Counted from the stretch's first letter, positions 10,572 to 47,342 are shown. The stretch: 64,000 nucleotides of DNA from an uncultured bacterium (GCA_963845185.1 CAWJRG010000001.1:224001-288000), one strand, 5' to 3'. Numbers and translations are program-made. Notes: generated by a model not told the origin, from the letters alone.

Positions 10572-10598
10572 TGATATACCCCTGATTATAATATCATC

Positions 10599-10626
10599 GT
10601 AGAGACACGCCATGGCGTGTTTCTAC
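10599..10626. repeat. REP palindrome (1 mismatch)
   Basis: GTAGAGACACGCCATGGCGTGTTTCTAC. Confidence 0.9.
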
Positions 10627-27527: not shown

Positions 27528-27644
27528 GTGGAACCCCGCCGCAGCAGTCGGCGGATCCTTTAATAACCACCGGAGGTTATCATAAGTTCCCTCCGGAAAG
27601 GTATAATATATTCCCCAACCAAAGTTGGGGAATTTCTTTCTGGA
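27528..27644 (-). mobile_element. Non-autonomous multi-hairpin element, copy 1 (117 bp)
   Basis: Homologous to 35080-35199 and 46177-46395; conserved ends GTGGAACC...CTTTC(C/T)GGA. Confidence 0.75.
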
Positions 27645-27741
27645 TTAATTATAAGACAGTTTTATATTTTTAGTCAATGGTAAAAGCATGCAGTCGTCAG
27701 TAGTAGTTCAAACCTTATCACTGCTATATAATTGACTTTTT

Positions 27742-27924
27742 CTATACATAACCATGGCATTTAAATTCACTTTCACCGTGCTGGTCTATGCGCATAAGAT
27801 TGCACAGGACTTCTTCGGATAGTTTCCCGTCATTAACACAGGTTACGCACAGGCCGGGTTTGGGAATCAAATTTTGATTTATGCGCGTGCCATCATCGAG
27901 AAAATAGCCTTCATCGTCAAGCAT
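27742..27924 (-). CDS. Small Cys-containing hypothetical protein
   Basis: DDGT.IN..LIPKP.LCVTC...LC...F.C; AGGTG RBS. Confidence 0.6.
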   Translation of the reverse strand: MLDDEGYFLDDGTRINQNLIPKPGLCVTCVNDGKLSEEVLCNLMRIDQHGESEFKCHGYV

Positions 27925-27963
27925 ATATCACCTATCATTTTTTTGAAACATATGCAAGTGCCC

Positions 27964-29031
27964 TCACTCCGCTTCCACGAGGGTTGCGCTCTGGAGAACC
28001 GCATCAACGCTTCCTATGGCTATATGGCTTTTCAGGAGCACCGGTACCCTGTTTGCGTCGTCGGTAACCCAAATATCAAGCTCTCCTTTTTGCTTGAAAA
28101 TACCTTCGAATTTCAAATATGGCCTGATAATAATGCAGTCAAAGGTTCCGGCGTCAACAGTGACCTTTTCCTTCCCGACTTTTTTTACGAGCACCTGGTA
28201 CGGCTTGCCCTCATCAGAGCAAACATCTATATAAACCTCGTCTTTTCCTGTCATGTCTATGTTCCTGAAAAAATACAGTTCAGACAGTACGTCCTGCACA
28301 AATGAAGGGACTTTATACTGCTCTTTTGTATATTTTATAGCAAGCTGCTTCTCGGGAAAAAACTCTATTCCGCTGTATGCCTTATACGTGCCTTCCTCCA
28401 GGTTTTTGCTGTATTTCAGGGAAAATAGCCCCAGGACATCCATGTATGATTCGATTTTATCATTAACCCTGTAAAATGTCTCAAAAACCGGCGCGGTCCT
28501 TGCCGTTGCCACTATATGATAAGCCTGCCTGTTATGTATTTCATCCATTTCCTTTATTTCAAGTATGCCTACACCTGCGGTTATGTTGAAATACTTGACT
28601 GAGTACACCAGTTTTTCGCCGACACCGAAACATTTATTTACGACTGTCCTGTATTCAAATGCCTTTTCAGCCGGTTTTATCTGCTGTCGCGGGTCATCCT
28701 TGAAATCATTCGGGTCTAGTACAGGCAGGAAAAATTTCTGGCCTTTATGTACATAGTAAGGCGGCTTAATTTTATTCGCGCTTGCTATGGCTTTCCAGCA
28801 CAGGGGATTGTTGTAATTTTTCCTCGCTATGCTCCACATTGTATCATCTTCCAGCGCGTAATAATATTCAGCCCGCTTTGGTTGTTCTTTTATAACAGCG
28901 GCTTCGGCTTGTTTCTTAAGTTTTGCTTCCTGCTTTTGTATTTTAATTTTTGCGATTTTTTGTACCTGGACACCGGCGCAGGAACAAAATATAAATGCCG
29001 CTGCGGCAAAAAAAATCACTGCATTTTTCAT
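27964..29031 (-). CDS. LysM plus DUF3108-like lipoprotein
   Basis: Lipobox FCSC; LysM DTMWSIA...W..IASANKI; GEKL.Y, V.AGTFDC and W..DD..RVP motifs. Confidence 0.78.
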   Translation of the reverse strand: MKNAVIFFAAAAFIFCSCAGVQVQKIAKIKIQKQEAKLKKQAEAAVIKEQPKRAEYYYALEDDTMWSIARKNYNNPLCWKAIASANKIKPPYYVHKGQKFFLPVLDPNDFKDDPRQQIKPAEKAFEYRTVVNKCFGVGEKLVYSVKYFNITAGVGILEIKEMDEIHNRQAYHIVATARTAPVFETFYRVNDKIESYMDVLGLFSLKYSKNLEEGTYKAYSGIEFFPEKQLAIKYTKEQYKVPSFVQDVLSELYFFRNIDMTGKDEVYIDVCSDEGKPYQVLVKKVGKEKVTVDAGTFDCIIIRPYLKFEGIFKQKGELDIWVTDDANRVPVLLKSHIAIGSVDAVLQSATLVEAE

Positions 29032-30002
29032 GGCGCCGCCTTCCTTAAAAGCAACGCGGCTTTCTGCGCCACGTAATCGGCGCTTATGGCATCCATGGGG
29101 CTTCCCTCGGCCGGCATTATTATTTCAGCCATATTGCCGATCGGCCTCCACCTTGTGGGCTTTATCCCGGAAAAAGGAAAAAAGGAAATTGTTCTTACCC
29201 CCAACGCAGCCGCTATGTGCATTGGGCCTGTGCTGGCGCTTATAAAAAGCTTTGAATGCCTGATTACCGATGCCAGCTGCCTTATCGAAAGATGCTCATT
29301 CATGATTGCCACATTCTTCCTGTTTTTCAGGCAGCCGTATATTTCCCTGGCTTTAAACTGCTCGCCTTTGCCGCTGGCAATCAGGATTTTTGTTTTTGTC
29401 ATTCCCGCCAGCTTTTCGATGATTTCAGAATACCGCATTACGCTCAGGTTTTCAGCCTGGCCCCTCCCGCCCGGATATACTATGACAAATCCCGGCTTTA
29501 TGCCCTTTTTCCCGAGGTATTTCTTGGCCTCCAGTATTTCAATTTTCTCAAGGTATAAATAAAGCTTCTCTGCTTTTTTCTCGCCTATTATATCCCTCGC
29601 CTGCATGAGGTTATAGTCGGCTTCGTGCATCAGGGAATATTTCCTGTGCATTTTTATCCTTTTGTTGAAAAATAAAAACGAATACCACCTGTATGCTGTC
29701 CCTATCCTCTCAGGTATGCCTGCCTTCTTGATAAGCCGGGCAACGCCAAAGCGCGGGAATAAAATTATTGCCGTATCAAATCCGTAACCCCTTAGTTTTG
29801 CAGCCAGTCCCCCTGTACTTCCTTTTTTGTAAATTATTATTTCGTCGACTTCTGGGTTGTTTTCAATGACGCCTTTCGCGTAGTCGCTGGCAAGCACCGC
29901 AAGGAAGCAGCCTTTTATCCTTTTCTTTATTTCATGTATAAGTGGCGTGGCGAGAAGCAGGTCGCCTACGGCGTCCGTGCGGGAAATCAGGATTTTTTTC
30001 AT
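29028..30002 (-). CDS. GT9 LPS heptosyltransferase
   Basis: RTDAVGD...TP, STGPMHIAAALG, RWRP. Confidence 0.88.
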   Translation of the reverse strand: MKKILISRTDAVGDLLLATPLIHEIKKRIKGCFLAVLASDYAKGVIENNPEVDEIIIYKKGSTGGLAAKLRGYGFDTAIILFPRFGVARLIKKAGIPERIGTAYRWYSFLFFNKRIKMHRKYSLMHEADYNLMQARDIIGEKKAEKLYLYLEKIEILEAKKYLGKKGIKPGFVIVYPGGRGQAENLSVMRYSEIIEKLAGMTKTKILIASGKGEQFKAREIYGCLKNRKNVAIMNEHLSIRQLASVIRHSKLFISASTGPMHIAAALGVRTISFFPFSGIKPTRWRPIGNMAEIIMPAEGSPMDAISADYVAQKAALLLRKAAP

Positions 30003-30475
30003 TTGTATTTGTCCACTATTGTCTTTATCAGGTCTTTTGTGGAATGCCTTTTCCTGTCGCCGACAATAGCTATTTTTATACCCAGTCTTTTCGCAATATC
30101 CCTTTCAGGCACGGTGTTTTTCGTATAATCGGTCCCTTTTGCGTGGAAATCCGGCCTCAAAACCTCAAGCGTCCTGTCCACGGTAAGCTCATTAAATACC
30201 GTTATATAATCCACAAACTCAAACTCGGACAGGATTTCAGCGCGTTCTTTTGCCCCCACAAGCGGCCGCCCCTTGCCTTTAAGTTTCCGGACTGAATTGT
30301 CCGAGTTAAGCCCGACAATCAGCACGTCTCCTTTTGCGCGCGCGCCTTTTAAAAACCTTATATGCCCCACATGCAGAATGTCAAAACACCCGTTCGCGAA
30401 CACGACTTTTTTCCCGCGCTTTTTTATTTTCCTTATTATGCCTGCAAGCTGTTCCCTGCTTTTAAGCTTTGACAT
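29999..30475 (-). CDS. Second RfaE2-like adenylyl/cytidylyltransferase
   Basis: ANGCFDILHVGH, NSD.SV, KGTDY. Confidence 0.88.
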   Translation of the reverse strand: MSKLKSREQLAGIIRKIKKRGKKVVFANGCFDILHVGHIRFLKGARAKGDVLIVGLNSDNSVRKLKGKGRPLVGAKERAEILSEFEFVDYITVFNELTVDRTLEVLRPDFHAKGTDYTKNTVPERDIAKRLGIKIAIVGDRKRHSTKDLIKTIVDKYK

Positions 30476-31451
30476 TCTTCAACGCCTCTTTTAATTCGTC
30501 AGGCGAGACAGTGGCGACGCCCCTCTTCATTACTACAATCCCCCCGCCGATATTTGCAATAAAAGCCGAGTCATATAGCGAGGCCCCGCATGCAAGGCCC
30601 GCGGCTATAATTGAAGAAACCGTGTCGCCCGCGCCTGACACATCAACTATTTCGTCGCTTCCGAAAGCCTGTATTTTCTCAACATTCTTTTTTTCAAATA
30701 CAAGCATGCCCTTGCTGCCCCTTGTTATTATCATGCCTTTGGATTTTACCAGTTTCATAAGTTCGAAACCTATTTTTTTGACATTCTCCTCCTCGTATTC
30801 CTCTATATTGACCAGCGGGCCCGCCTCGGTTTCGTTCGGGGTTCCTGTTGTTATGTACTGAAATTTAAAAAGGTTGTGCCGGGAATCGACGACTATATTC
30901 TTGCCTTTCTTGCCGAGCCCGTTGATAACTTCAATCATGGCATCGGTTATGATCCCGCCGCCGTAATCGGAAACAAGTATCGCGTCTGTTTCCTCTGCCA
31001 GTTTTTTAATGTATGCAATGATTTGTTTTTCTATATCACCGGACAGCTGCCTTATATGGTATTTATCAACCCTCACTACCTGCTGTTTTGCCGTATGCAC
31101 GCTGCCTGCCATTATTCTTGTCTTTACGGGAAGCATGTATTTCTCGTCCCTCAGGATATACCTTATATCCACTTTTTTCCGGTTGATTATATCCAGCAGT
31201 ATATCTGAAAAACCGTCGTCTCCGACCAGGGACACCGGCACGGGCTCTGCTCCTATGTCTTTTATGTTTAAGATGGGGTTTGCCCCGCCTCCGGCCAGGT
31301 ATGTGCTCTGCCTGTATTTTAAAATAAGCACCGGCGCCTCGCGCGAAATTCTTTCTGTCTCCCCGTAAATGTACTCGTCGAGAATAAAATCCCCGAGCAC
31401 AAGTATTCTTTTGCCTTTGAACTGGTCAATAAGATTCAGATATTTATCCAT
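30462..31451 (-). CDS. Second RfaE1-like PfkB kinase
   Basis: GDFILDEY, RISREAP, DVSGAGDT; start at MDKYL after AGGAG. Confidence 0.88.
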   Translation of the reverse strand: MDKYLNLIDQFKGKRILVLGDFILDEYIYGETERISREAPVLILKYRQSTYLAGGGANPILNIKDIGAEPVPVSLVGDDGFSDILLDIINRKKVDIRYILRDEKYMLPVKTRIMAGSVHTAKQQVVRVDKYHIRQLSGDIEKQIIAYIKKLAEETDAILVSDYGGGIITDAMIEVINGLGKKGKNIVVDSRHNLFKFQYITTGTPNETEAGPLVNIEEYEEENVKKIGFELMKLVKSKGMIITRGSKGMLVFEKKNVEKIQAFGSDEIVDVSGAGDTVSSIIAAGLACGASLYDSAFIANIGGGIVVMKRGVATVSPDELKEALKNVKA

Positions 31452-31569
31452 GTCTTTCACTCCTGTAATTTTAGAATTTTTCAAGTTTCTTAGTTTCTTG
31501 GTCTCTGTGTCTCTAGTTTCCAATTAAACTAAGAAACCCAGAGACTGAGAAACTCAGAAACATGCTGTA

Positions 31570-32142
31570 TCAAGTTTTATTAATAATCCACTCCGCCGCA
31601 TCCAGCATATCATCCGCTGTATAATCCGGTTTTACCTTCTGCTTTTTAATGAGCTTTCTTTCTTCTTTTCCAAACCCGGTTAATACAAGTATGCCTTTCA
31701 TTCCGCTGTTTTTGGCAAGCTGTATATCAGTAAGCTTGTCGCCTATCACAAAGCTTTTTTTTAGGTCAATATTAAACCTGTTTTTCGCCTTCATAACCAT
31801 GCCTGTTTTCGGTTTCCTGCAATCACAGTTTTTATAATACCTTTTAACCACTACATTCCTAATATGATGCGGGCAGTAATAAAAAGCTTTTATTTTAACT
31901 CCGTATTTTTTCAATAAGCCGCTGATATATTTATGCGTTTTTTTAACAAAATCCTCGATAAAATAACCCCTTGCCACGCCGGATTGGTTTGAAATAACAA
32001 CCGGGATATATCTGTTTTTTTCAAGCAATTCAAGGGCTTTTATGCTTTTGCTGTATATATGTACCCTTTTCAATGAACTCAAATACCCTGCTTCTTTTAT
32101 AAGCGTCCCGTCCCTGTCTATAAAAACTGCCTTATTTTTCAT
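31570..32142 (-). CDS. gmhB: Heptose 1,7-bisphosphate phosphatase
   Basis: DRDGT, SNQSG, CPHH, CDCRKP, GDK..D. Confidence 0.92.
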   Translation of the reverse strand: MKNKAVFIDRDGTLIKEAGYLSSLKRVHIYSKSIKALELLEKNRYIPVVISNQSGVARGYFIEDFVKKTHKYISGLLKKYGVKIKAFYYCPHHIRNVVVKRYYKNCDCRKPKTGMVMKAKNRFNIDLKKSFVIGDKLTDIQLAKNSGMKGILVLTGFGKEERKLIKKQKVKPDYTADDMLDAAEWIINKT

Positions 32143-32281
32143 GCATTCCTCATCTAATATTATACAAAAATTTATTCTGCTTTACTCTTATATTGTGGCA
32201 AGTGGTAAGTGGTATGAGATATTTAATAAATAAAATTTTAAATTTCCCATACCATATAGCACCTATCACATATCACAGTTT

Positions 32282-34027
32282 TCACTCATTCTTCGTCATA
32301 TTAAACTGCATATCATAAAGTTTTTTATAAAGCCCTTTCTTCCTCATCAGCGACTTATGATTTCCACGCTGGACTATTTTTCCTTTCTCAACGACTATTA
32401 TCTGGTCCGCGTGCCTTATTGTGGACAGCCTGTGCGCTATTACAAAAGTAGTCCTGTTTTTCATAAGGTTGTTTATTGCTTTCTGTACAAGTATCTCGGA
32501 ATGGCTGTCGAGCGACGACGTGGCCTCGTCAAGTATAAGTATTGGAGGGTTTTTAAGAATAGCCCTTGCTATCGCCAGCCTCTGCCTCTGACCTCCGGAA
32601 AGCCTCACTCCCCTATCGCCTATTAAAGTGTTGTATTTTTCCGGCATTTTTTTTATAAACTCGTGGGCATTTGCCGCCTTAGCCGCCTCTAACACATGGT
32701 CTTCGTCCATGTCTTCATGCCCATAAGCAATATTGTTTTTTATCGTGTCGTTAAAAAGTATGGTCTCCTGTGTCACTATGCCTATCAGTTTGCGCAAAAA
32801 CTCTATCTTTATTTTTTTTACATCATGCCCGTCTATTGTTATGCTGCCCGAATCAACATCGTAAAACCTAGGCAAAAGGTCTGCAATTGTGCTCTTGCCT
32901 GCGCCTGACGGCCCTACAACCGCAAACACCTCTCCTTTTTTGATTTTAAAATTGATTTTGCCGAGCACCTCTATGCCTTTGATATACGAGTAACTGACGT
33001 TCTTAAAATCCACTTCTTTTTTGAATTCATCCATTGACACTGCGTGCGGGTCATCCTTTATATCCGGTCTTTTATCCAGTACTGAAAATATCCTCTCGGA
33101 TGCCGCAAGCGCCTGCATGATGGTGTTGTTCATATCGTTTATTTTTTTTATCTGCGGGTACAGCAATATCAGCCCGCCTATGAAAGCTAAAAATGTGCCG
33201 GCTGTCATATGCCCGTTCATGACCAGTCCGCCCACGTACCATACAATGACCGCTATTCCGACCGCGCCTATTGTTTCCATAACAGGCGACGACAGCGACG
33301 AATATCTAACTCCCCTCATTGTATAGTCAAAATATTTGCGGAGCTCAATAAGGAATCTGGAAGACTCATATTTTTCCATGCCAAATGCCTTCACAACCCT
33401 TATGCCGTTGAATGTCTCGTTCAGGACCGATGTAACTTCTCCCATCTTTTCCTGGGACAGCCTTGCTGACGATTTCATTTTTTTGGCGAATTGTGTTATG
33501 GGCAGAACCGCTATCGGGAAAACTATGATCGCTATAAGCGCGTGTCTCCAGTCCAGATAAAAAATAAGCCCGACAAGTCCTATAATATTCAACACACTGC
33601 CTATAAGGTTGCTCATCACATCAGATATCGCGCCCTGTACGTTTGTCACGTCGTTTGTAATGCGTGACTGCAGGACACCCATTCTCTCGTTGTTAAAAAA
33701 ACTCATGGAAAGCGATGTTATATGCCTGTAAAGCTGGTCCCTCATATCGACTATTATGCGGTTACCAACATACCTGACAAGGTAAATCTGGATGTAGGTG
33801 CAAATGCCTTTTGCAAAATATATTATAATTATGGCAAAAGGCAGGATCGCAAGCCAGTGGGCGGCTTCGGCCTTATTCGGGTTCGTAAAGATTTTATCAA
33901 AAACCGGCTTGACAATGTACATGGAAAGAGGCGTCAAAATAGCAGTAAAAAGCAGGAATATAAGCGCCAGAATGACCCTTTTCATATAAGGCTTTGTGTA
34001 TCTTAAAAGGCGGAAATATGTGTTCAT
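32282..34027 (-). CDS. msbA: Lipid A/LPS flippase-like ABC transporter
   Basis: Six-TM domain plus GPSGAGKS, LSGGQRQR and DEATS; LPS context. Confidence 0.82.
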   Translation of the reverse strand: MNTYFRLLRYTKPYMKRVILALIFLLFTAILTPLSMYIVKPVFDKIFTNPNKAEAAHWLAILPFAIIIIYFAKGICTYIQIYLVRYVGNRIIVDMRDQLYRHITSLSMSFFNNERMGVLQSRITNDVTNVQGAISDVMSNLIGSVLNIIGLVGLIFYLDWRHALIAIIVFPIAVLPITQFAKKMKSSARLSQEKMGEVTSVLNETFNGIRVVKAFGMEKYESSRFLIELRKYFDYTMRGVRYSSLSSPVMETIGAVGIAVIVWYVGGLVMNGHMTAGTFLAFIGGLILLYPQIKKINDMNNTIMQALAASERIFSVLDKRPDIKDDPHAVSMDEFKKEVDFKNVSYSYIKGIEVLGKINFKIKKGEVFAVVGPSGAGKSTIADLLPRFYDVDSGSITIDGHDVKKIKIEFLRKLIGIVTQETILFNDTIKNNIAYGHEDMDEDHVLEAAKAANAHEFIKKMPEKYNTLIGDRGVRLSGGQRQRLAIARAILKNPPILILDEATSSLDSHSEILVQKAINNLMKNRTTFVIAHRLSTIRHADQIIVVEKGKIVQRGNHKSLMRKKGLYKKLYDMQFNMTKNE

Positions 34028-34162
34028 AATGAGAGTATTTTAAATGATTTTTGCAGGCAGGTCAAGGACAATAAGGATTTTAGGTAAAAGCTTAAAATTT
34101 GCCAACACCATATCATTATTGTAATGGTTTGCTAATTCCCCTAAAACCGTTCCTGTTATGCT

Positions 34163-35068
34163 TTACCTAATAAATTGAGCGATAATAAGTGCAAGCCCTG
34201 TTATCAAATGCGCAACAATAGTCATAACGCATGCAGGAGCAAGCTGCAAAGGATTGTCAAAATTTTTGTCGAGCAATGTTATTGCTTTTAAAGAAGGCAA
34301 AAGCCCCAGCAAACTCAAAAGCGACCAGACCGGGATAGCACGCAGGATTACCGCTGTCACGATTATTGCGTACGCAATAAAAACAATTACAGCATGAAAA
34401 ATGCTGCCGTTTTTCCTGCCAAGCCTGACCACCAAATTCCTTTTTCCGGTTTCTTTGTCAGCCTCATAATCAGGAAACTGGTTTATGTCCACTATCGCAG
34501 AGGCAAGCAGCCCTACGGGGATTGACGCAAGCAGCGAGCCAAAGCTTGCATTGCCAGCGAATGCATAATACGCGCCTGTAACCATTATGGGCCCAAACCC
34601 CAGGAAAATAAAAAACTCCCCAAGCCCCCTGTGCGCCAATTTAAGTGGCGGAGCCGTATAAAATACCCCGGCAAACAAAGACAAGCCGAGCAAAAACAAA
34701 AGATACATGCCCTTAAAATATGAAACAATGCATAGTAAAACGCTCCCGAGCAAAAAAAGTACGACTGCTTCGCCAAGCACAGCCTTTGGTGCCAGGACGC
34801 CTGACTGTATGAGCCGCGACCCGCCGGTAAAAGGAAAAATAAACTGCTTGTTTATCCTGTCTGTGCCGTTGATATCGTCAAAGTAATCATTAAGAACATT
34901 TGTAGCCAGGTGCAGGAAAATAAAACCTGCGAGCACAGCCGAAAATATTGCTCCGTTAAATTTAGCGCCGGTTTTAATTGCCATTTCACTCCCCAGCAGC
35001 ACCGGTATTATTGTAACAGTCAAAAAAGGCGCCCTTGTTTCAAGCATCAAAGCCTTAATCTTGTTCAT
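34163..35068 (-). CDS. menA: UbiA-family prenyltransferase (MenA-like)
   Basis: NDYFD...GTD, GGSR, YTAPP, NQFPDYEAD...GK..LVVR; start MNKIK after AGGAG. Confidence 0.75.
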   Translation of the reverse strand: MNKIKALMLETRAPFLTVTIIPVLLGSEMAIKTGAKFNGAIFSAVLAGFIFLHLATNVLNDYFDDINGTDRINKQFIFPFTGGSRLIQSGVLAPKAVLGEAVVLFLLGSVLLCIVSYFKGMYLLFLLGLSLFAGVFYTAPPLKLAHRGLGEFFIFLGFGPIMVTGAYYAFAGNASFGSLLASIPVGLLASAIVDINQFPDYEADKETGKRNLVVRLGRKNGSIFHAVIVFIAYAIIVTAVILRAIPVWSLLSLLGLLPSLKAITLLDKNFDNPLQLAPACVMTIVAHLITGLALIIAQFIR

Positions 35069-35079
35069 CGTAATCTCCT

Positions 35080-35199
35080 GTGGAACCTCGCCGGCAGGAA
35101 TCGGCGGCTCCTTTAAAAACCACCGGAGGTTTATTGTAAGTTCCCTCCGGAAAGGTATAATGCATCCCTCCAACCAGAGTTGGGGGATTTCTTTCCGGA
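35080..35199 (-). mobile_element. Non-autonomous multi-hairpin element, copy 2 (120 bp)
   Basis: Same ends as copies 1 and 3; abuts the menA RBS. Confidence 0.75.
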
Positions 35200-35266
35200 T
35201 TAATTTTCATTCGTTGATTGCTCCCACTATCGGATTTTGTATGTGAAAACTTTAAACTTAACGCAG

Positions 35267-35953: not shown

Positions 35954-36057
35954 TAGCGTTCTCCTTTATTAATGATTTCTAATTTCTAGTTGCATTATCT
36001 GTCACCTATCACCAATCATCTTTCTCTTACTCTTACCCCTTACCACTTTCCCCTGTC

Positions 36058-37245: not shown

Positions 37246-37350
37246 ATTTTAGCCTCTTCCTTTATTTGTGTTGAGTGCTGCGTACTGCGTGCCACGGAAT
37301 AACAAAAACGTTCTTCCATCGCACATCGCACGTCACACTTAGCACGCTGC

Positions 37351-38166: not shown

Positions 38167-38229
38167 TTTAGTTCTCCTTTTCTTTTGTCATTTAATATCT
38201 GCTATCTCATATCCAATATCTAATATGCC

Positions 38230-39471
38230 TTATTTAACTCCACGCTTCAGCGCGTCCACTATCTTTGTCTCTGCCGCCATATTCGCTGGAAAATATGCGC
38301 CGAATATTCCGGCGATTATGCATATTACCCCTGCCATTATCCATATTATAGGGCTATTTGCCGCTTTCATATGAAAATCCATGGGCACGCTCAGGGCCGC
38401 TGTTATCTTCGGGTCTATGTAAATGCCGTGCGTTACCATGTAATACATCATCGGAGCGGAAACAATATACCCGATTATCACGCCGAATATGCCCAGCAAA
38501 ATGCCCTCGGTTATGAATATGCCCCGTATCTGCCCCTTTTCCAGTCCCATGGCGCGCAGCGTGCCTATTTCAGGAATGCGCTCATATACGGTCATGGTTA
38601 TGGTATTGGTAATAATAAAGAAAGCCAGAAACAGCAGCACTGCGGCAAATACAGCAAAAGTCGTGTATTTCATCCTGACAGTATCTATGATCTCAGGCGC
38701 TTCTTCTTTCCAGTCAAGCGCCTCAAGCCCAGGGAACTGGCTCGCAAGGACGCCCTTAATATATTTTGTTGCCTGCGGCACGCTTCCCATATCTTTCAAT
38801 TTTATTATTATCTCTGTCGCATGACCTTTCATGTCAAAAAACCTTTGGGCAAAAGCATAAGGGATAAACACATTCATTTTTTCCATATTGTCGAAACCCA
38901 CGCTGTATATGCCTTTTACATCTACGTCTTCCAGGTTGTTGGCGTTATACACGGTCTGGGAATAAAGCAGCAGGTTTTCATTTCCCGACAGCTTCATTAT
39001 CTCCGCGAGTTTTTTTCCTACAAGCACTTCTGCGCCGCTTCCAAGCCCGGAACCGTTTATCCTGTCATACGCTGTAAGTATTTTTTTTTCCATGTCCATG
39101 TCAATGCCGTTTATTATCACGTTCATTTTCCTATTCGTATCGCTTATTATCCCCGGGTGTATTATACGCGGGCTTGCGGCCACAAAACCCGGAGCTCCCT
39201 TTATAGCTTCTATCACTTTTTTCGGGTCAGCGATATTTATATCAAGCGGCAGGGTGCGCTTCTCGTCCGTATAGCCTTTCGCGTATATTTTTATGTGGCC
39301 TATGCGCAGGTCTATCATCTTGTTTATCATGCTGTCGAGCTGGCCCTGCTGCATACCGAATCCTACGAGTATCACGAGTACATTCAGCGCGAAGGTGAGT
39401 ATGTTCAGCGTGGAGCGCCTTTTATTCTTGAATACGTTCCTCAAAGCGATAAAAAATACTTTATTGTTCAT
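38230..39471 (-). CDS. FtsX/LolE-like ABC permease
   Basis: RNV.KNKRRS, ER..EIGTLRAMG, YFPA. Confidence 0.9.
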   Translation of the reverse strand: MNNKVFFIALRNVFKNKRRSTLNILTFALNVLVILVGFGMQQGQLDSMINKMIDLRIGHIKIYAKGYTDEKRTLPLDINIADPKKVIEAIKGAPGFVAASPRIIHPGIISDTNRKMNVIINGIDMDMEKKILTAYDRINGSGLGSGAEVLVGKKLAEIMKLSGNENLLLYSQTVYNANNLEDVDVKGIYSVGFDNMEKMNVFIPYAFAQRFFDMKGHATEIIIKLKDMGSVPQATKYIKGVLASQFPGLEALDWKEEAPEIIDTVRMKYTTFAVFAAVLLFLAFFIITNTITMTVYERIPEIGTLRAMGLEKGQIRGIFITEGILLGIFGVIIGYIVSAPMMYYMVTHGIYIDPKITAALSVPMDFHMKAANSPIIWIMAGVICIIAGIFGAYFPANMAAETKIVDALKRGVK

Positions 39472-40706
39472 TCCAGTACCCTCATTATGTCCGACGGCTT
39501 TTTGACCGCAGCCAGCACCGCTGGATAGAGTGAAGCGACGACCGATATGAGTACGCCGGTAAATAGTATTACAACAAGCGAGGCAGGCACCAGTATGAAC
39601 CCCAGTGTGGCATCCATCGCGCCCATGCCCGAGCCCTCCATAAGCTTCATTATATTCTGGAAGTTAAAGGGATTTGCTTCCAGGTATTTCACCACCATTG
39701 TGCCGGGTATTATTCCGGCTATTGTCCCTGTTACGCCGAGCATGAAGGACTCGGTTAAAATCATTCCGAATATCTGCCATTTTCCGACGCCCATTGCCCT
39801 GAGCACGCCGAACTCCTGCATCCTGTTCATGATGTTCATCAGGAAAGAGTTCAATATTCCCAGCGACGCGGCGAATATAATTATTATTGAAAGTATCAAT
39901 ATTGCCACATCTACTATTTTCAAATAAGAAACTACGAAAGCCTGCCCCACCTGCCATGGCACTGCTATGGCGTCTGTTGGGAGCATTTTCTGGATTATAC
40001 CGGCTTTTATATGCGCTTCTACAGGGTCTTCTATGTTTACGGTTATCTCGGTCACTTTTCCCTCGAGCGCGAGCAGCTTTTGCGCCAGCGGCAGGCTGCA
40101 TACCACGAGGCTCTCGTCCTCAATGGAGCTGTTTGTTTTTGACAGGCCTACGAGCCTTCCCTCGGCCGCGTTTATCCCGCCATACTGGTCCACGCTGAGT
40201 AAAATGATGCTGTCGCCCAGCTTCACATGCAGGGATTTTGCCGCCTTGTACCCCAGCACTATGTCCTTTTCGCTTTGTATAAAATGCCCCTCGACCATCA
40301 TTTTTTCCCTGTGCTCATAGTTTTTTTCCACGTCGTGCGGGTCAACAGCCTTTACTATACACTCGATATTTTCCGTGACAGAGTTCGCGATAGCCCCGAA
40401 ATTCATTTCCGGTATGACATTCTCCACGCTTGGCACAGCCTTAAGCTTATCAAGCATTTTGGTGTCATAAAGCATATTGAACTCGGTCCTGGAAAAATCG
40501 AGTTCCTTGTAATAATTGGCATTGTAAATCTTGATATGCCCCGCTGCCTTCAGAAAGTCATTGATGATTTTCGACTTAAACCCGTCAATGAACCCGACCC
40601 CGAACTCCATCAGGAACACGCAGACAAAAACTACAATAAGTATGGTTAACGACGTCCGCCTGTTCTTTATCAAATTTCCGAAAGCTATCTTTAAAAATAT
40701 TGGCAT
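39468..40706 (-). CDS. FtsX/LolE-like ABC permease
   Basis: NL.KNRR, R..EFGVLRAMG, SLYPA. Confidence 0.9.
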   Translation of the reverse strand: MPIFLKIAFGNLIKNRRTSLTILIVVFVCVFLMEFGVGFIDGFKSKIINDFLKAAGHIKIYNANYYKELDFSRTEFNMLYDTKMLDKLKAVPSVENVIPEMNFGAIANSVTENIECIVKAVDPHDVEKNYEHREKMMVEGHFIQSEKDIVLGYKAAKSLHVKLGDSIILLSVDQYGGINAAEGRLVGLSKTNSSIEDESLVVCSLPLAQKLLALEGKVTEITVNIEDPVEAHIKAGIIQKMLPTDAIAVPWQVGQAFVVSYLKIVDVAILILSIIIIFAASLGILNSFLMNIMNRMQEFGVLRAMGVGKWQIFGMILTESFMLGVTGTIAGIIPGTMVVKYLEANPFNFQNIMKLMEGSGMGAMDATLGFILVPASLVVILFTGVLISVVASLYPAVLAAVKKPSDIMRVLE

Positions 40707-40773
40707 GTCTTTTCACCTCATCAATTCTGCATCTCTTTTCCTTAGCACATCCCACATAGCGCGCAGTACGTTT

Positions 40774-41427
40774 TTATTTATATATTCCGTTCTTAAGTAT
40801 TTTCTTAACAAGTACCAGATTTGTGTTGTACATTTTCTTTATTTCCTTTGCTGTAGTTTCGCTGTTTATTTTTGACATCACTTCTGTATCCAGCGCCGTG
40901 TCTATCCACATGAATAGTTTTACAAGTTCCCGCTTGCTCAGCGAGTATTTTGACATGTCAACGCCTTTCGAAATCGTTAGCAGCAGAGGCATCATGTACG
41001 GCTCCCACTCTTTCCTCAACTTCATAAGTATGTCCCCGCCGCGATCCGAAAGCATTGTTTTAAAAAGTTTAAACATCTGCAAATCCTCGCCAAAATGGTC
41101 ATACATATGCTCTATCATATGCAGGTAAAGGTCAACGGCATCTTCTGTTTTGCCCGGCAGGTTTTCAATTATATGCTGTATAAAGCTTCCAAACATTTTT
41201 TCTGCAAGAGCGAGGAACAGTTTTTCTTTCGTGCCGAAATATTTAAAGATGGCGCCCTTTGACACGCCTGCTTTTTTGGCTATACGGTTGGTTGACGCCA
41301 TTTCATATCCGGTATCGGCAAATTCGTCAACAGCTGCCTTAATTATTTTTTCCCGTTTTTTTGGCTTTATGCGGTCAAAAGCGTTCTTTTTATTAAGTAC
41401 TTTATTAATATCGAGTTTTCCGCTCAT
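40774..41427 (-). CDS. TetR/AcrR family regulator
   Basis: EFA..GYE.AST..IAKKAGVSKG.IFKYFGTKEKLF. Confidence 0.92.
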   Translation of the reverse strand: MSGKLDINKVLNKKNAFDRIKPKKREKIIKAAVDEFADTGYEMASTNRIAKKAGVSKGAIFKYFGTKEKLFLALAEKMFGSFIQHIIENLPGKTEDAVDLYLHMIEHMYDHFGEDLQMFKLFKTMLSDRGGDILMKLRKEWEPYMMPLLLTISKGVDMSKYSLSKRELVKLFMWIDTALDTEVMSKINSETTAKEIKKMYNTNLVLVKKILKNGIYK

Positions 41428-41852
41428 TTATTTTTCGTCCTTTGTCCGGCAAAATACTCCATTTTTACGGACACTAAAAGCAGCCATAAAAATATTAGGG
41501 TAACTAATACTCCCGTAATTCCGTTGAATAATTCCTCTTTAAACATCCTGATTGCATCGGCTGCCCCGTTTAAAACGAAAAAAACCATTGCAGTATATAT
41601 TGCCCACTTTTGCCTTTTTATCATGCCTACTCCAACAACAAATAACGCGGCCGAAAGCGTCAATAAAATCGGTGCTACCATCTGTCCGTAATAGTGTATT
41701 TTTGCGGCCGCACCCTTTCTCAGCTTCCATATTGCGTCAAGTGGTGTCCCTGGAACATATATAGTGAAACTCACGAGCAGACACATTGCTACCGCAAAAA
41801 ATAAAAATACTGTAACAATCAGGCTTTCGTAAGGCATTTTTTGCTTTTCCAT
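41424..41852 (-). CDS. Four-TM membrane protein
   Basis: Hydrophobic segments; ATGA-type coupling to tetR. Confidence 0.65.
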   Translation of the reverse strand: MEKQKMPYESLIVTVFLFFAVAMCLLVSFTIYVPGTPLDAIWKLRKGAAAKIHYYGQMVAPILLTLSAALFVVGVGMIKRQKWAIYTAMVFFVLNGAADAIRMFKEELFNGITGVLVTLIFLWLLLVSVKMEYFAGQRTKNK

Positions 41853-41935
41853 TATTTACCTTTCTCCCCCTTTAACAAAGGGGGCCAGGGGGTTTTTACT
41901 TTTCTACGTTAATTCCAAATCCAAAATCCGTAATC

Positions 41936-42017
41936 AAAAATGACCTACTGGTCATTTTTGTAGATTTATACACAATTGAATTGTATTTGTCAAGCAAATA
42001 ATGACCGCATGGTCATT
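41936..42017 (-). promoter_or_regulatory. Promoter flanked by two palindromic operators (likely TetR sites)
   Basis: AATGACC-N4-GGTCATT at 41939-41956 and 42000-42017; TTGACA(41993-41988)-17-TATAAA(41970-41965). Confidence 0.75.
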
Positions 42018-42084
42018 TTTTTAAAAAAATTATAGTATTTCAATACAAGCCAAGGTCGGAGCACTATAGTCGAAGGAATATAGA

Positions 42085-42831
42085 TTAGTTGGAATTTAAT
42101 ATTTCTTTTAAGCGAGTTTTAACATCTCTTAAATCGACTTTCCTAAATTTTCCTTTATTATTATCAAAAATAAGCACTTTACCTTTTGTTTCTTTTTCCT
42201 TTTTTTTATTGTATATTTTAATATATATAGCCAATATTTTTATACCAAACTCAGGATTTTTTTTACTTGATTTTGTATTTTGATTTACAATTTCACCAAA
42301 CCACTCTTTCAATTTGTTAATAGAATTCTTAGTGTCGCCAGAGTCTTCCGCTCGATGAATATGTATTAAGTGACCACGCTTTTTCGAATGAGATACTTTA
42401 TTATAATCTCTTAAAATATGGTCTCGATTATTTGTGTTTTCAGTCCCAAATTCAATTATATAAGCAGGCTCTACATATCCTTTGGACGATGAATCTATTT
42501 TTAGTTTCTTATTTTTAATCTCTCCTATCGTTCCTTTATCTAAAATAACTATATCACTTCTTTCATAATCTTTTTGGTTGTTACCATATTCTGTGTGTAC
42601 TAACATTGTTTTATATAACCCCTTTGAGGGTTTTCCATTTTTCCAACCAAGATGCAATCCTGTTTTGCTTAAATTGTTTTTATTATCCGGATTGAGAACA
42701 TTAATTTTCATTAATTCGCGTGAAACTAACACATGTATATCGATTTCAGATAAAAAAATTAATGGCTCATTACAAATTTTATTCAAAATATTAATTATTT
42801 TTTCCTCTATTTTTATACATATTTTCTCCAT
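42085..42831 (-). CDS. AT-rich hypothetical protein, possibly nuclease-fold
   Basis: 248-aa ORF with E.D...VHTEY...RSDIVILD...IIEFG spacing. Confidence 0.6.
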   Translation of the reverse strand: MEKICIKIEEKIINILNKICNEPLIFLSEIDIHVLVSRELMKINVLNPDNKNNLSKTGLHLGWKNGKPSKGLYKTMLVHTEYGNNQKDYERSDIVILDKGTIGEIKNKKLKIDSSSKGYVEPAYIIEFGTENTNNRDHILRDYNKVSHSKKRGHLIHIHRAEDSGDTKNSINKLKEWFGEIVNQNTKSSKKNPEFGIKILAIYIKIYNKKKEKETKGKVLIFDNNKGKFRKVDLRDVKTRLKEILNSN

Positions 42832-43027
42832 TTTTCGTCCTTAAATTTTTATCGTTGTTTTTGAAAGCAGAAACATAGTATACTACCTCGTCCCCCCGCG
42901 TTTTTCAGCGATAGTGTCCTCAAACTCAAAAAGAATTGACTACTTGTATCAGTTAATTAATTGTACCAAACGTAAGGGTTTGCATAAAGCAAATTTTTAT
43001 GTATACTTTCATCGAGGAGAGTGACAA

Positions 43028-43360
43028 ATGACTGACAACCAACAGAATAACGGATTGAAGAAACCAAAGTTAACCCCAGAACAACTTTTTGATATTTATC
43101 AGGAATGTTCCTTACCCAACGCGCCAGTAAAAGCCATCCTGGAACGGTGCGGGCTTAAACCGTGGCATCTTATTGCCTTGCGTAAGAGAATCAAGCAAGC
43201 TGCCCTGTCAGAACTATCGAATCCGGCAAAATCCGGCAGAAAGAAGTCCATGGTTCCCGTAGAAAGCCTTGCTCAAGTGGATAAGGAACTTTCTCAAACA
43301 AAGGACGCGCTGGCTGCTGTCGGGCATGAGCTTGCGTTGTTAAAAAAAAAGATGAGTTGA
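43028..43360 (+). CDS. IS3-family OrfA
   Basis: HTH-like N-terminus and coiled coil; ends in LLKKK with an A9G slippery site at 43342-43351. Confidence 0.78.
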   Translation: MTDNQQNNGLKKPKLTPEQLFDIYQECSLPNAPVKAILERCGLKPWHLIALRKRIKQAALSELSNPAKSGRKKSMVPVESLAQVDKELSQTKDALAAVGHELALLKKKMS

Positions 43361-44358
43361 GTCTCAAGGGTCCTTTGAAGGGGCACTATCCGGCCCAAGT
43401 TAGGCAGATAGTTGTTATCACTATAAACGAAGCCGTACTATCCGGTTTCACGCAGAAAAGAGCTTGTTTGATCTTTGACATAGACGCCAGAAAATTCAGA
43501 CGCTGGGCTAAACTAAAAAAGAGAACGCCAAGAACGGCATGTAACAAACTGTTGCCGTTTGAAAAGACATCGATTATTGACTCTGCCTTTAGACCTGAAA
43601 ATATAGGCAAGCCATTGAGCCATATTTACGTATATGGCCATAATTCAGGCGCTTTTCATGCTTCTCTATCGACTGTATACAGGTATCTAAAAGCCGAAGA
43701 TCTCGTAAAACCATTCGAACCCAAAAAACGGAAATCTAATCATGTTTCGGCTCACGATCTTTTGGATGCTGGATTTTCCCTTTTGACCTATGACGGTTCA
43801 TGCTTCAAAACCGAGTCCGGCGTAACTGTTTGGTCCATACCGGTTCTGCTTCTGCCTTACAGGTATCTGCTGCATATCGGACACAGTTTACGCGGCGTCA
43901 GTTCAGCGGATTTACGGGATGCCGTTGCTCAAGCCATACTTGAACTGCCGGATGACTTTCCTGACAACATAGTGGCTTTTTCAGACCGCGGATCTGCTAT
44001 GAAAGCCAAAAAGACTGTTGCCTTCCTGGAAGATGTGCTAAAAATTCCTGTACGCTACGGACGCCCAAACACGCCGGATGACGAACCATGGATTGAGGCC
44101 CTGAATAAAAACTCGAAGTATCACAGGGATGTGCCGGCTGTCTTTCCAACGGTTTCAGATGTACTGGACTGGTTAGAAAAATTTAAACCACTGCATAACA
44201 ACGATCCTCATAGCTCGCTACATTATGTTACACCGGCTGAGGCGTTCGCGGGAAAAATGGAGGTGATTTTAAGCCAGAGAAAGAACAACCTGATCACTGC
44301 AAACATTATAAGGTTGGAGGCTTTCAGGGCTTCCAAGCTTCAAGTAGTGATTGGGTGA
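43357..44358 (+). CDS. IS3-family OrfB, DDE integrase core
   Basis: S.STVYRYL, TYDGS, SDRGSAM, D.PWIEA, HSSL.YVTP; -1 frame relative to orfA. Confidence 0.82.
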   Translation: MSLKGPLKGHYPAQVRQIVVITINEAVLSGFTQKRACLIFDIDARKFRRWAKLKKRTPRTACNKLLPFEKTSIIDSAFRPENIGKPLSHIYVYGHNSGAFHASLSTVYRYLKAEDLVKPFEPKKRKSNHVSAHDLLDAGFSLLTYDGSCFKTESGVTVWSIPVLLLPYRYLLHIGHSLRGVSSADLRDAVAQAILELPDDFPDNIVAFSDRGSAMKAKKTVAFLEDVLKIPVRYGRPNTPDDEPWIEALNKNSKYHRDVPAVFPTVSDVLDWLEKFKPLHNNDPHSSLHYVTPAEAFAGKMEVILSQRKNNLITANIIRLEAFRASKLQVVIG

Positions 44359-44368
44359 CGGTTTGAGG

Positions 44369-45121
44369 TCAATTAAGCTGAAAAACTCCGGTCCAGTTAG
44401 TACTCTCATTTATAATTACCTTTACTAACGTTTCTGATGCATCGTACCATTCCTGTTTAAAATCATTGCCTTTACCGTCATAGAAGGACTTATCCGCCAT
44501 AGTCAACTTTCCTGATGCATCGTAATATTCCCATTTAACATTATTGCCTTTACCATCATAAAAAAACCTACTAATTGCAATCAATTCTCCTGACGCATTG
44601 TACCTTTCACATTTAATTTTGTTATTCTTATCATCATATAAGAATTTATCCGCTTCAGTCAACTCCCCCGATGCATCATACGCATTATCCTTAAAATCAT
44701 TGCCTTTCTTATCATAAAAGTGGTTTATCACATCCGTCAACTCCCCTGATGCATTATATATTTTACCTTTAAGCGGCTTTCCTTTATTATCATAGAAAAC
44801 TTTAGTAATTTCTTTCAATTCTCCCGAAGCATCGTAAAATTTCTCCTTAATCTTGTTGCCTTTACCGTCATAGAAGGACTTAATCGCCATAGTCAACTCT
44901 CCCGATTCATTGTACACTTCACATTTAACTTCATTACCTTTATCATCGTAAAATTGTTTCTCCATACCAATTAACTTACTTTTATCTATCTTTCCAAAGC
45001 TAACACCATACGCTGAAGAAGTTACTACTTGGTTCACATACTTAGCTTCCAAACTCATAAATAAACTCATAAACAAAACTACAAACGACACACAAACAAT
45101 TAATTTTTTGTGAGTAGACAC
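44369..45121 (-). CDS. Exported repeat protein (7 x 26-aa YD/MORN-like repeats)
   Basis: Signal peptide; repeats FYDxKGN...YDASGEL; 5' end lies in the intron, 3' end runs into the IS end. Confidence 0.8.
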   Translation of the reverse strand: MSTHKKLIVCVSFVVLFMSLFMSLEAKYVNQVVTSSAYGVSFGKIDKSKLIGMEKQFYDDKGNEVKCEVYNESGELTMAIKSFYDGKGNKIKEKFYDASGELKEITKVFYDNKGKPLKGKIYNASGELTDVINHFYDKKGNDFKDNAYDASGELTEADKFLYDDKNNKIKCERYNASGELIAISRFFYDGKGNNVKWEYYDASGKLTMADKSFYDGKGNDFKQEWYDASETLVKVIINESTNWTGVFQLN

Positions 45122-45894
45122 CTTTTATAACCTCCTTTGGTTACTTAATGCCCCTCTCAGAACCGAACGTGACCGTTTCGGTCATTCGGCTCCACGGGAA
45201 TACTTCCTAATACGATGACAGCGCATAGGTTAGATGATATACCATTATACTCCGTAATTGCCCAGGGCTTTATCTTTCTTTAGCTCTCCAGGACATTCCA
45301 AAAGAGAACCCTCATTGAGCAGGTGTATATGTGTCTCTTAACTCAACTTTGGATTTTCCTTTGCACGCATAGTCAGGGTCTTAAGTTTCGTTGCCATTCC
45401 ATCTCCACCTCTGTGTGTGGCGGATGTATCCCTTACGACCCCACGCTTTTCCCTCTATCCCCTTTTCTCCATCTACTTTCATAGACTTCATCGATACTAT
45501 GGGATAGTCAGACTGCCGGGACATCTTTTACGGCTCCTCATCTTTTGGAATTTGTCGCCGCATACTCTCCTTTTGAGGATGTCTCGGCTCTCCCGAGTTC
45601 ATATCTGTTCCTTGACATCTTGACACGGCCTTAGACCCCGTCGGGTTCCCACTCTCTCGCCTTTTATGATTGTGGGACTGCTGCCTGCTTCGTTATGAAC
45701 AGTGTCGGCCTCCGACACGATGGCGATTTCGGGGCTCAATACCTTCACTTGCGTTGTATCCCGATGTCTCCCGCCTTCCAGCTTCATTTAGTTCGTTGCC
45801 TCCCTAAATGTGGAATTTGGTATTGGGCTGGTGGCTGACCTTTGCCCAAGCTGGATTTTCACCAGCGCGAACCGATACGCTTTTCTCGGCGCAC
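45110..45894 (-). ncRNA. Group II intron, ORF-less (internally deleted IEP)
   Basis: 5' GUGCG; domain V GAGCCGAAUGACCGAAACGGUCACGUUCGGUUC (45192-45160); domain VI with bulged A ending CUACUCAC. Confidence 0.88.
45245..45397 (-). pseudogene. Remnant N-terminus of group II intron reverse transcriptase
   Basis: MATKLKTLTMRAKENPKLS*ETHIHLLNEGSLLECPGELKKDKALGNYGV* resembles the IEP N-terminus/RT0 (HLL...L.K.KAPGIDGV). Confidence 0.75.
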
Positions 45895-45909
45895 TCATTT
45901 ACGCCTCCC

Positions 45910-45969
45910 TTGATGATGTTTATTTTGTCGAACCGTCAACAGGCGAAAACAAAATATTACAGCACTCAA
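45910..45969 (-). ncRNA. Candidate leader hairpin motif (copy 3, RBS-proximal stem only)
   Basis: AUUUUGU...CGCCUGUUGACGGUU...ACAAAAU followed by AAGGGAGG-N5-AUG. Confidence 0.5.
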
Positions 45970-46015
45970 TTCCAGCAAAACGTTAGTGAAGCTGGATTCA
46001 TCTTATCCATATATA

Positions 46016-46043
46016 ATTATACCCCTTCTTTTCACGCTGTCAA
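46016..46043 (-). promoter_or_regulatory. Consensus sigma70 promoter driving the intron-containing gene
   Basis: TTGACA-16-TATAAT. Confidence 0.7.
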
Positions 46044-46073
46044 TTAATATGCATCTTCTCAGCCCATTTTTCC

Positions 46074-46430
46074 CTATCTTTTCTTCATCCACTTTTCACC
46101 CACTTCACAACCTGCTTGAATATCGCATGCCCTATCTTGCCGAAAAGCGGCTTCGGCACATGGTTCTCCGCCTGCGGTGGAACCCCGCCGACAGGAATCG
46201 GTGGTCCCTTAATAACCACCGGAGGTTACTGGAGCTACCGCTTCCAGTCCAAATAGCTAATATGCGACGTCCGCCGAAGCAGAACTTTCTGCGTAGGCGG
46301 ATAATGAGTTCCCTCCGAAAAGGCCATAGTCCCGAGCGAAGTCGAGCGGATATAATTTCATCACCAACTGGAGTTGGGGGGAATTTCTTTCCGGATTATT
46401 ATATTGTGCACCAGCTCAAAGCCGGGGTTT
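46074..46430 (-). pseudogene. Duplicated 3' end of the ParB-like gene, interrupted by element copy 3
   Basis: GFELVHNII|TQAENHVPKPLFGKIGHAIFKQVVKWVK versus GFELAHNIITQAENHVPKSLLGKIGHAVFKQVVKWVK at 47453-47586. Confidence 0.8.
46177..46395 (-). mobile_element. Non-autonomous multi-hairpin element, copy 3 (219 bp, two internal insertions)
   Basis: Same ends as copies 1 and 2; empty site visible at 47556/47557. Confidence 0.8.
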
Positions 46431-47289: not shown

Positions 47290-47313
47290 GCGTTCATCTC
47301 CTTTATCAATAAG

Positions 47314-47342
47314 ATTATACACATTTATGTGTACATTATCAA
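47314..47342 (-). promoter_or_regulatory. TA promoter with palindromic operator
   Basis: TTGATA-17-TATAAT; TACACAT-N2-ATGTGTA at 47318-47333. Confidence 0.72.

Follow-up and report, generated by a model that had tools for sequence, protein, structure and literature searches.

A short hairpin-ended repeat of a Goldbacteria genome with features of a gene-less IS200/IS605-type transposon derivative

Introduction

Short elements that carry no gene and are moved in trans, the PATE-like elements, have already been described; in the accessible part of the source, PATEs are gene-less derivatives of IS200/IS605 elements that occur in Geobacillus stearothermophilus and in haloarchaea (PMC10055086). For IS608, the consulted part of the literature states that the cleavage sites are recognised via pairing with the 4 nt located 5′ of each hairpin foot; at the right end, cleavage bases 1 and 2 pair with guide bases 2 and 1, triplets form with the two bases 3′ of the foot, and the third base, an A, is unpaired (PMC3201880). 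The left-end motifs given in the same part are TTAC and AAAG (PMC3201880), from which we read that cleavage base 4 pairs with guide base 4. In the portion of the source at hand, IS200/IS605 elements are further described as placing their active strand on the lagging-strand template when they insert (PMC5027513). Here we describe a hairpin-ended repeat, 117–120 nt long in its intact copies, three copies of which lie in a 64-kb stretch of DNA from an uncultured bacterium. This whole stretch, hereafter the window, corresponds to C1:224001-288000 of the Goldbacteria genome G000 (3.5 Mb, 11 contigs, 99.4% complete); positions without a contig name are counted from its first letter.

The anatomy of the repeat, an empty site, a strand bias and a patchy distribution point to the reading that we favor, namely that the element is probably, though by no means certainly, a non-autonomous, PATE-like derivative of an IS200/IS605-type single-strand DNA transposon, for which we infer a Y1 enzyme and single-strand chemistry. 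A preliminary description of the window had proposed a novel element of this kind, moved in trans, possibly by a RAYT enzyme encoded at 10 kb, or else a new structured mobile RNA. The mobile, gene-less nature and the IS200/IS605-like ends have held up, the link to the RAYT gene has not, and a structured mobile RNA is conceivable; the novelty is reduced because PATE-like elements are already known, at least as far as the accessible text of that source extends (PMC10055086). A literature search combining Goldbacteria with repeat and transposase found no paper.

Copies, ends and fold of the element

A covariance model of the element (R1) was built from 12 full copies and applied at a threshold of E≤0.01. 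It matched 24 places in G000, among them all three window copies (genome positions C1:251528, 259080 and 270177), and it found these at the same places and with the same ends as had been noticed before. All three window copies lie on the minus strand, which is the top strand of the element. The copies, their flanks and the empty site discussed below are as follows.

27528..27644, minus strand: copy 1, 117 nt, 34 nt upstream of the start codon of a gmhA-like gene
27610..27633, minus strand: left subterminal hairpin of copy 1, followed on the plus strand by a T-rich run, with a terminator-like score
27645..27648, minus strand: TTAA flank of copy 1, proposed left cleavage/target motif, overlapping the final base of a −10-like TATAAT
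35080..35199, minus strand: copy 2, 120 nt, its final base adjoining the AGGAG of a menA-like gene with ATG at 35062
35200..35203, minus strand: TTAA flank of copy 2
46177..46395, minus strand: copy 3, 219 nt, with two nested inserts, in a dead duplicate covering the 3′ end of a ParB-N-domain gene
46396..46399, minus strand: ATAA flank of copy 3
47553..47560, minus strand: empty site in the intact twin (join 47556/47557), in the coding 3′ end of the ParB-N-domain gene

The 5′ end TCC(A/G)GAAAG and the 3′ end GGTTCCAC are common to the window copies and the other intact copies of G000. When the window copies were compared with G000 by blastn, 27 clusters were obtained, four of which are short matches to inserts only (three of 28 nt to the insert of copy 3, and one of 30 nt to an insert present in several copies). 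Pairwise identity among the 12 aligned copies is 84–99% (median 89%), and three copies are 98–99% alike. In longer copies, inserts are confined to two places, one following the left hairpin and one within the central loop; copy 3 carries one at each, of ~27 nt between the left and central hairpins (also found in several other copies) and of ~72 nt inside the central loop. Two-hairpin mini-derivatives that have lost the centre are present at C10:513122-513163 in G000 and at locus L271 in the related genome G002. All three window copies are flawed, and better-preserved copies exist outside the window: copy 1 has its right guide mutated to GGAT and lacks 1 nt of its right hairpin, copy 2 has a decayed right hairpin, and the right guide position of copy 3 reads GGGA. 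A 28-nt part of the central-loop insert of copy 3 (46228-46255) recurs at C1:80974, C10:62363 and C11:43144, in each case adjoining a copy of a ~1.35-kb insertion sequence (IS) that encodes a 486-aa DDE transposase and has ~12 copies in G000; this recurrence suggests that another small repeat family is nested in copy 3.

Read 5′ to 3′ on the top strand, the left part consists of the flanking TTAA, the boundary, TCCAGAAAG, AAAT, an 8-bp hairpin (CCCCCAAC, a 4-nt loop and GTTGGGGG), AT and a spacer. A central hairpin of 7 bp (CCGGAGG-loop-CCTCCGG) and a T-rich spacer follow, and the right part is formed by GGAG, a second 8-bp hairpin (CCGCCGAC, a 4-nt loop and GTCGGCGG), GG and TTCCAC, which ends at the boundary. 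RNAalifold, RNA folding and DNA folding agree on three hairpins per element, with z = −4.9 for the RNA fold and z = −4.8 for the single-stranded DNA fold; the DNA centroid fold contains exactly these three hairpins and leaves GGAG and GGTTCCAC unpaired. Over three genomes, 93.4% of the cells of the right hairpin are paired, against 23–52% in slid controls, and three of its eight pairs are changed on both sides; for the left hairpin, 94.7% of the cells are paired and four of eight pairs are changed on both sides. These changes represent few independent covariation events, because only three lineages are involved.

A scan of the window at the Rfam gathering thresholds gave nothing except a group II intron and no family for the element, and a permissive scan of copy 1 gave as its best match STnc490 with 21 bits against a gathering score of 56, that is, noise; a match to a described Rfam family, which would have spoken against novelty, was thus not obtained. 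The right hairpin is similar to domain V of a group II intron (GAGCC...GGUUC with a 2-nt bulge), an identity that was rejected on the position of the bulge, the different loop, the lack of domain VI, the wrong 5′ end and the lack of an Rfam score. Hairpin and other self-cleaving ribozymes were also considered and set aside, there being no Rfam match.

The empty site and the target motif

The ParB-N-domain gene at 47453-48715 runs uninterrupted across the insertion point, and the flanks of copy 3 match 47451-47593. The left flank of copy 3 is identical to the twin at 97 positions in 108 alignment columns, up to ...CCGCCTGCG (46176 / 47556), and the right flank shares 25 of its first 27 bases with the twin, starting from TTAT (46396 / 47557). 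The join between filled and empty site is exact: there are no duplicated bases, and the TAA before copy 3 belongs to the target sequence. Reverse complementation of the 5′ end TCCAGAAAG does not give the 3′ end GGTTCCAC, which means that there are no terminal inverted repeats. The exact join with the twin thereby bears out the earlier statement that a filled and an empty site coexist in the window, with neither target-site duplication nor terminal inverted repeats, and the same two features led us to reject a classical miniature inverted-repeat transposable element of a DDE transposon.

On the top strand, the window copies are preceded by TTAA (copy 1), TTAA (copy 2) and ATAA (copy 3), in agreement with the WTAA motif recognised before. 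This flank was tabulated, together with the guides, over 27 copies, comprising 23 of G000 (the degenerate copy at C11:116096 was excluded) and four from metagenomes. The latter derive from a scan with an 18-letter left-end pattern, which gave at least 119 stretches; 80 loci were fetched, and four of these contain true copies, with ends identical to those of the G000 element. The 5′ flank is TTAA in 17 of the 27 copies, with A at base −1 in all 27 and A at base −2 in 25. Reads of one DNA run (5% of the words) yielded fragments of relatives and extra depth over repeats, and no clean empty-site joint was present among them; a circle junction, in which the right end is joined to the left end, had 0 matches in the G000 assembly.

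Guides and cleavage sites

Both ends fit the rules of IS608. At the right end, the guide GGAG faces CCAC and GG follows the hairpin foot; at the left end, the guide AAAT faces TTAA and AT follows the foot. Counted by script with a rigid 8-4-8 hairpin geometry, GGAG is present in 12/27 copies, CCAC in 20/27, AAAT in 19/27 and TTAA in 17/27. When the guide window is slid by 1–3 bases, the fit is lost at both ends (consensus read by eye). The preliminary description had noted an AT-rich 5′ motif, subterminal hairpins and the lack of both target-site duplication and terminal inverted repeats, which make the ends IS200/IS605-like; guide complementarity can now be added to this list.

A second form of the pairing is seen in relatives. 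G000 is the sole representative of its genus and family in the comparison set, and genomes G002 and G012 belong to its order and to different families. The subfamilies of these two genomes have the left guide AAAA, and TTAT precedes the conserved body in 20 of 21 copies; compared with AAAT and TTAA in G000, position 4 therefore changes on both sides.

If the element is indeed of the IS200/IS605 type, a Y1 HUH transposase supplied in trans would bind both hairpins on single-stranded DNA and would locate the cleavage sites, 3′ of TTAA and 3′ of CCAC, by pairing with the 4 nt 5′ of the hairpins. The top strand would then be excised as a circle and inserted into the lagging-strand template at a new site, 3′ of another TTAA. 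As G000 yielded no cognate tnpA, the copies may be fossils or may rely on an unrecognised or unassembled enzyme.

Strand bias and position near genes

The G-rich strand was assigned for each copy from 50 kb on each side, and 2395 long open reading frames (ORFs) served as the baseline. For 23 of 24 copies the top strand of the element coincides with the G-rich strand, compared with 1841 of the 2395 ORFs (77%) that are encoded on it. TTAA is palindromic, and the target motif therefore cannot set the orientation. If the G-rich strand is taken as the leading strand, whose sequence the lagging-strand template shares, the bias has the direction expected for insertion on the lagging-strand template as described in the consulted part of the source (PMC5027513). 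The bias could also be strengthened by selection, since the element presents on its reverse strand the left hairpin followed by a T-rich run, which was scored as terminator-like; the favored orientation keeps this hairpin and T-run out of the transcript.

According to the ORF table, read by eye, ~21 of 24 copies are co-oriented with the neighboring genes, and for at least 13 of 24 no more than 40 nt separate the end of the copy from a start codon; for three copies, the TAA of the flank doubles as the stop codon of the upstream ORF. Copies 1 and 2 lie directly upstream of genes that had been named gmhA and menA, and these names are borne out as gmhA-like (TIGR00441, 205 bits, slightly below the cut-off of 209) and menA-like (TIGR00751, 105.8 bits, above the cut-off). 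One further feature concerns copy 1.

27648..27677, minus strand: sigma-70-like promoter match by consensus only, TTGACT-18 nt-TATAAT, 11/12 positions, ending 3 nt before copy 1

Transcription from this promoter match would make the element the 5′ leader of the gmhA-like mRNA. Within the element, no promoter match was found on the sense strand, and copy 2 has one match on the plus (antisense) strand. Copy 3 lies in a dead gene fragment, and a place before a ribosome-binding site is therefore not required for insertion; the frequent placement before such sites probably reflects tolerance plus selection. At C1:301642 and C5:521589, the downstream ATG follows 0–2 nt after the right end of the element and there is no separate ribosome-binding site; the nearest purine-rich runs are in the element itself, GGAG before and GGGG after the right hairpin.

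Distribution in related genomes

R1 has matches in 3 of 41 related genomes, G000 included. Those in G002 and G012 are weak and represent diverged subfamilies of ~200 nt with the same plan. A second covariance model limited to the right end of the element (R2) has matches in 5 of the 24 genomes of the order, namely G002 (50), G000 (12), G012 (4), G007 (1) and G013 (1); the single matches in G007 and G013 proved on reading to be unrelated hairpins. No R2 match was obtained in the other 19 genomes of the order, and the congeners G010, G015 and G005 are blank. When one copy from G002 was used as the blastn query, 54 matched pieces were obtained in G002 itself and 8 in G012, and the congeners G010 and G005 had no match. 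Outside G000, the copy numbers are ~50 in G002 and 4–8 in G012. At three orthologous spacers, whose flanking genes share 73–84% identity, the congener lacks the element; the congener spacers are unalignable, and only absence, not an exact empty site, was therefore scored. The copy of the G012 subfamily at locus L081 (G012 C81), 1293-1803, has a central insert of ~340 nt, with CTTTACC repeated at both sides of the insert.

RAYT-like genes and other Y1 genes

The only gene of the HUH class in the window that could be connected with the element by its family is the one at 10 kb.

10014..10613, minus strand: RAYT-like Y1 HUH gene with H-M-H and YYDHIIRN, candidate trans-acting enzyme by family only

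This ORF scores 24.8 bits with Pfam Y1_Tnp and 52.9 bits with the NCBIfam REP-associated tyrosine transposase, the latter below the cut-off of 80. A 28-nt palindrome, GTAGAGAC...GTCTCTAC, is located upstream of the gene, downstream of it, and in frame after its HUH motif. It occurs at five sites in the window (within 9935-10625, at 6572-6593 and at 8321-8342) and gives 54 strand matches, or ~27 sites, in G000, so that gene and palindrome form a REP-RAYT pair of the classic type. A DDE transposase gene (DDE_Tnp_1_6 / DUF772, 8411-9838, plus strand) adjoins the RAYT-like gene. A second RAYT-like gene, C5:416791-417447, lies between type I restriction-modification genes and contains, after the HUH motif, two in-frame copies of a second palindrome of the GTAGAGAC type, which has five matches in the genome. 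Of the 24 genomes of the order, 15 carry RAYT-like genes; in G002 there is a fragment only, and G012 shows none. GTAG does not occur in the element, none of its copies flanks a RAYT gene, and the RAYT palindromes are unlike it. The RAYT gene at 10 kb that had been suggested as the mover is thus a genuine Y1 HUH gene with a differing repeat of its own, and nothing ties it to the element.

Several other places were considered as sources of an autonomous copy or an enzyme and rejected. The ends of the G000 contigs hold other types of IS, and the one-ended places in G002 (4 with the left end only and 15 with the right end only) are truncated or ordinary copies with no ORF between ends. Y1 genes of other genomes of the order (321–341 aa) have no flanking GGAG-hairpin motifs; a DnaA-C-like domain is also found in two of three scanned proteins of this group. 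The decayed IS200-like tnpA of G002 has a right end of its own that obeys the guide rule with different motifs, and a search for its relatives found only that gene itself.

Features around copy 3

Between copy 3 and the ParB-N-domain gene, on the minus strand at 46595-47322, lie a Gp49-like (HigB-type) ORF and a helix-turn-helix ORF, a couple that is likely a toxin-antitoxin pair. An ORF-less group II intron of ~750 nt (45108-45859, minus strand) is located downstream of copy 3 at a distance of 318 nt and is directly followed by an RHS-repeat ORF (44369-45121); it scores 106 bits with group-II-D1D4-6 and 49 bits with Intron_gpII in Rfam. A repeat of ~1.5 kb at 42899-44393 is present in five copies in G000, one of them at a contig end; as it encodes an rve_3 integrase-core ORF (43357-44358), it is taken to be an IS that breaks the assembly.

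Discussion

A number of observations weigh against a PATE-like derivative of an IS200/IS605-type transposon. The most direct of them concern the enzyme: a gene-carrying copy with the ends of the element was not found in G000, G002, G012 or the 80 metagenome loci, and three patterns gave 0 matches in viral contigs; the longer copies enclosing tnpA, tnpB or iscB that the preliminary description had envisaged were looked for in all of these sets and none was found. Family searches of G000 gave no match to Y1_Tnp, the TnpB zinc ribbon or OrfB_IS605; the Y1_Tnp search also missed the two RAYT-like genes, so a divergent enzyme could have been missed as well. G002 has only the decayed IS200-like tnpA, with ends unlike those of the element, and G012 has no PF01797 match and only one short fragment of a tnpB zinc ribbon. 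The copies that are 98–99% alike suggest recent movement, which fits poorly with an absent enzyme. With regard to the structure, the central hairpin is the most conserved part of the element and is not required by the transposase model, and a comparison of G002 with G012 shows covariation at two pairs of a helix around the left hairpin, for which that model has no need either. At the left hairpin, the position of the foot is ambiguous, since the stem could be lengthened by two further A-T pairs (AT/AT); the left guide is A-rich, which makes the left match less telling than the right one; and the left boundary in G002 and G012 was deduced from the point at which conservation stops, so that TTAT could be element sequence. 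Finally, the boundaries are fixed by a single empty site, the sole one found, and the strand bias is confounded with gene orientation, its excess over 77% being modest (P ~0.015).

The conserved centre and the position of the copies are what a portable structured RNA module would offer, that is, a module whose transcript serves the downstream gene, for example as a 5′ leader by stabilising the mRNA, adjusting translation or providing a processing site, and which was spread by another route, the transposon-like ends being secondary. As the sole explanation we consider such a module rather improbable, although the same role could coexist with transposition by an IS200/IS605-type route as a domestication. 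Co-orientation with genes in ~21 of 24 copies, the proximity of at least 13 to a start codon, the start of copy 1 at 3 nt past a −10-like box and the contact of copy 2 with AGGAG all agree with it, as do the RNA fold (z = −4.9), the near-invariant central hairpin, the covarying helix around the left hairpin, and the Shine-Dalgarno-like GGAG in the element, which in two copies is followed by ATG with no other Shine-Dalgarno sequence. The downstream genes, however, are unrelated to each other, the element is absent at the three orthologous spacers of congeners, and the best Rfam score (21 bits against 56) is no match, which together led us to reject a riboswitch or another family of cis-regulatory RNA. 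The precisely inserted copy 3 sits in a dead gene fragment, where it has no gene that it could serve, the mini-derivatives retain the ends and drop the centre, and the extended right stem proposed by RNAalifold (GGAGCC:GGUUCC) shows no covariation and has one pair broken in 10 of 19 rows. Moreover, an RNA module leaves the fixed DNA boundaries and the conserved flank unexplained.

Movement of a REP/REPIN-like repeat by the resident RAYT-like Y1 enzymes (10014-10613 and C5:416791-417447), and not by an IS200-type TnpA, would provide the missing enzyme, as these two genes are the only HUH genes found in G000. RAYT enzymes and TnpA share the catalytic fold, and hairpins with a guide-like tetranucleotide are features that such enzymes read. 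We nevertheless regard service by the RAYT-like proteins as decidedly improbable: both genes are flanked and interrupted by their own GTAGAGAC palindromes and never flanked by a copy of the element, which is unlike these palindromes and without GTAG, and the genes occur in 15 of 24 genomes, against three for the element, G012 having none and G002 a fragment. Another class of element without inverted ends, such as an IS110-type element with a bridge RNA, an IS91-type element or an integron-like cassette site, is highly improbable. Elements of the IS110 family are not known to have classical inverted ends, and G000 has eight matches to IS110-family transposases, including four identical copies of a 1288-bp IS; yet the ends of this IS bear no significant similarity to the element (best short match E = 0.12), and at the filled/empty pair the target and both ends have no base in common. 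A search for a Y2 transposase gave no match, although its control gave no signal either. The four 1288-bp copies are located at C1:323041, C5:335702, C9:330368 and C10:445859, three of them right after a C-rich sequence similar to CCCTCACCCT.

It is conceivable, if unlikely, that the hairpin-ended cassette is still moving in three Goldbacteria lineages that lack an intact IS200-type transposase, its movement being due either to an enzyme that has escaped recognition or to RAYT-like proteins that use it as a second, non-REP substrate, and that its central domain and the covarying helix make up a portable 5′ RNA leader before ribosome-binding sites. More generally, the element raises the question of what moves a family whose hosts lack the expected transposase. 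If the derivation from an IS200/IS605-type transposon holds, the element would be a natural example, in a distant uncultured phylum, of the IS608 rule by which a guide reads the cleavage site, with guide and target seen changing together between lineages. It would also show relics of a single-strand transposon becoming 5′ leaders of housekeeping genes, here those for heptose and menaquinone synthesis, whose expression they may change. For annotation, once the family is recognised, its copies will no longer be taken for riboswitches, integron sites or terminators.

Comparison with known systems

The REP2 repeats of Neisseria, the pneumococcal BOX and the enterobacterial ERIC are co-transcribed intergenic repeats. 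Like the element, they are small and structured, lie in transcription units near ribosome-binding sites and have optional inserts; by description, the element differs from them in its single-strand-transposon-like ends, its flanking tetranucleotide and its strict strand bias. REP/BIME (REPIN) sequences with their RAYT likewise combine short palindromic intergenic repeats with a single-copy Y1 HUH gene in the genome. By contrast, the element, with its 118 nt, has three hairpins and sharply fixed asymmetric ends, contains no GTAG and does not flank a RAYT gene.

PATEs, to the extent that they are covered by the accessible part of the source, resemble the element more closely: they are short, gene-less, multi-copy and presumed to be moved in trans, only the ends with subterminal hairpins are kept, and insertion is directed by a short motif without duplication. 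In contrast to PATEs as described there, the element has no autonomous or tnpB-bearing relative with the same ends among those found in its host and relatives, and no TnpB was found in G000; in addition, it has a conserved central hairpin and accumulates before ribosome-binding sites.

IS608, as presented in the consulted portions of the literature, has tnpA and tnpB and uses other motifs, whereas the element has neither gene and uses TTAA and CCAC. The distance from the left cleavage site to the hairpin foot is 19 nt in IS608, compared with 13 nt in G000 and 19 nt in G002; a further difference is that the left and right hairpins of the element agree at only 6 of 8 stem positions. On the other hand, IS608 shares with the element a cleavage/target tetranucleotide that precedes the left end and has an unpaired A as its third base, purines directly 3′ of the right hairpin (GG in the element), AT directly 3′ of the left one, and a right cleavage site at a similar distance after the foot (10 nt in IS608, 8 nt in the element). 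The active strand of IS608 lies on the lagging-strand template, and the bias of the element toward the G-rich strand, confounded as it is with gene orientation, would go the same way if the G-rich strand is the leading one. In both, the 4-nt guides located 5′ of the hairpin feet complement the cleavage sites.

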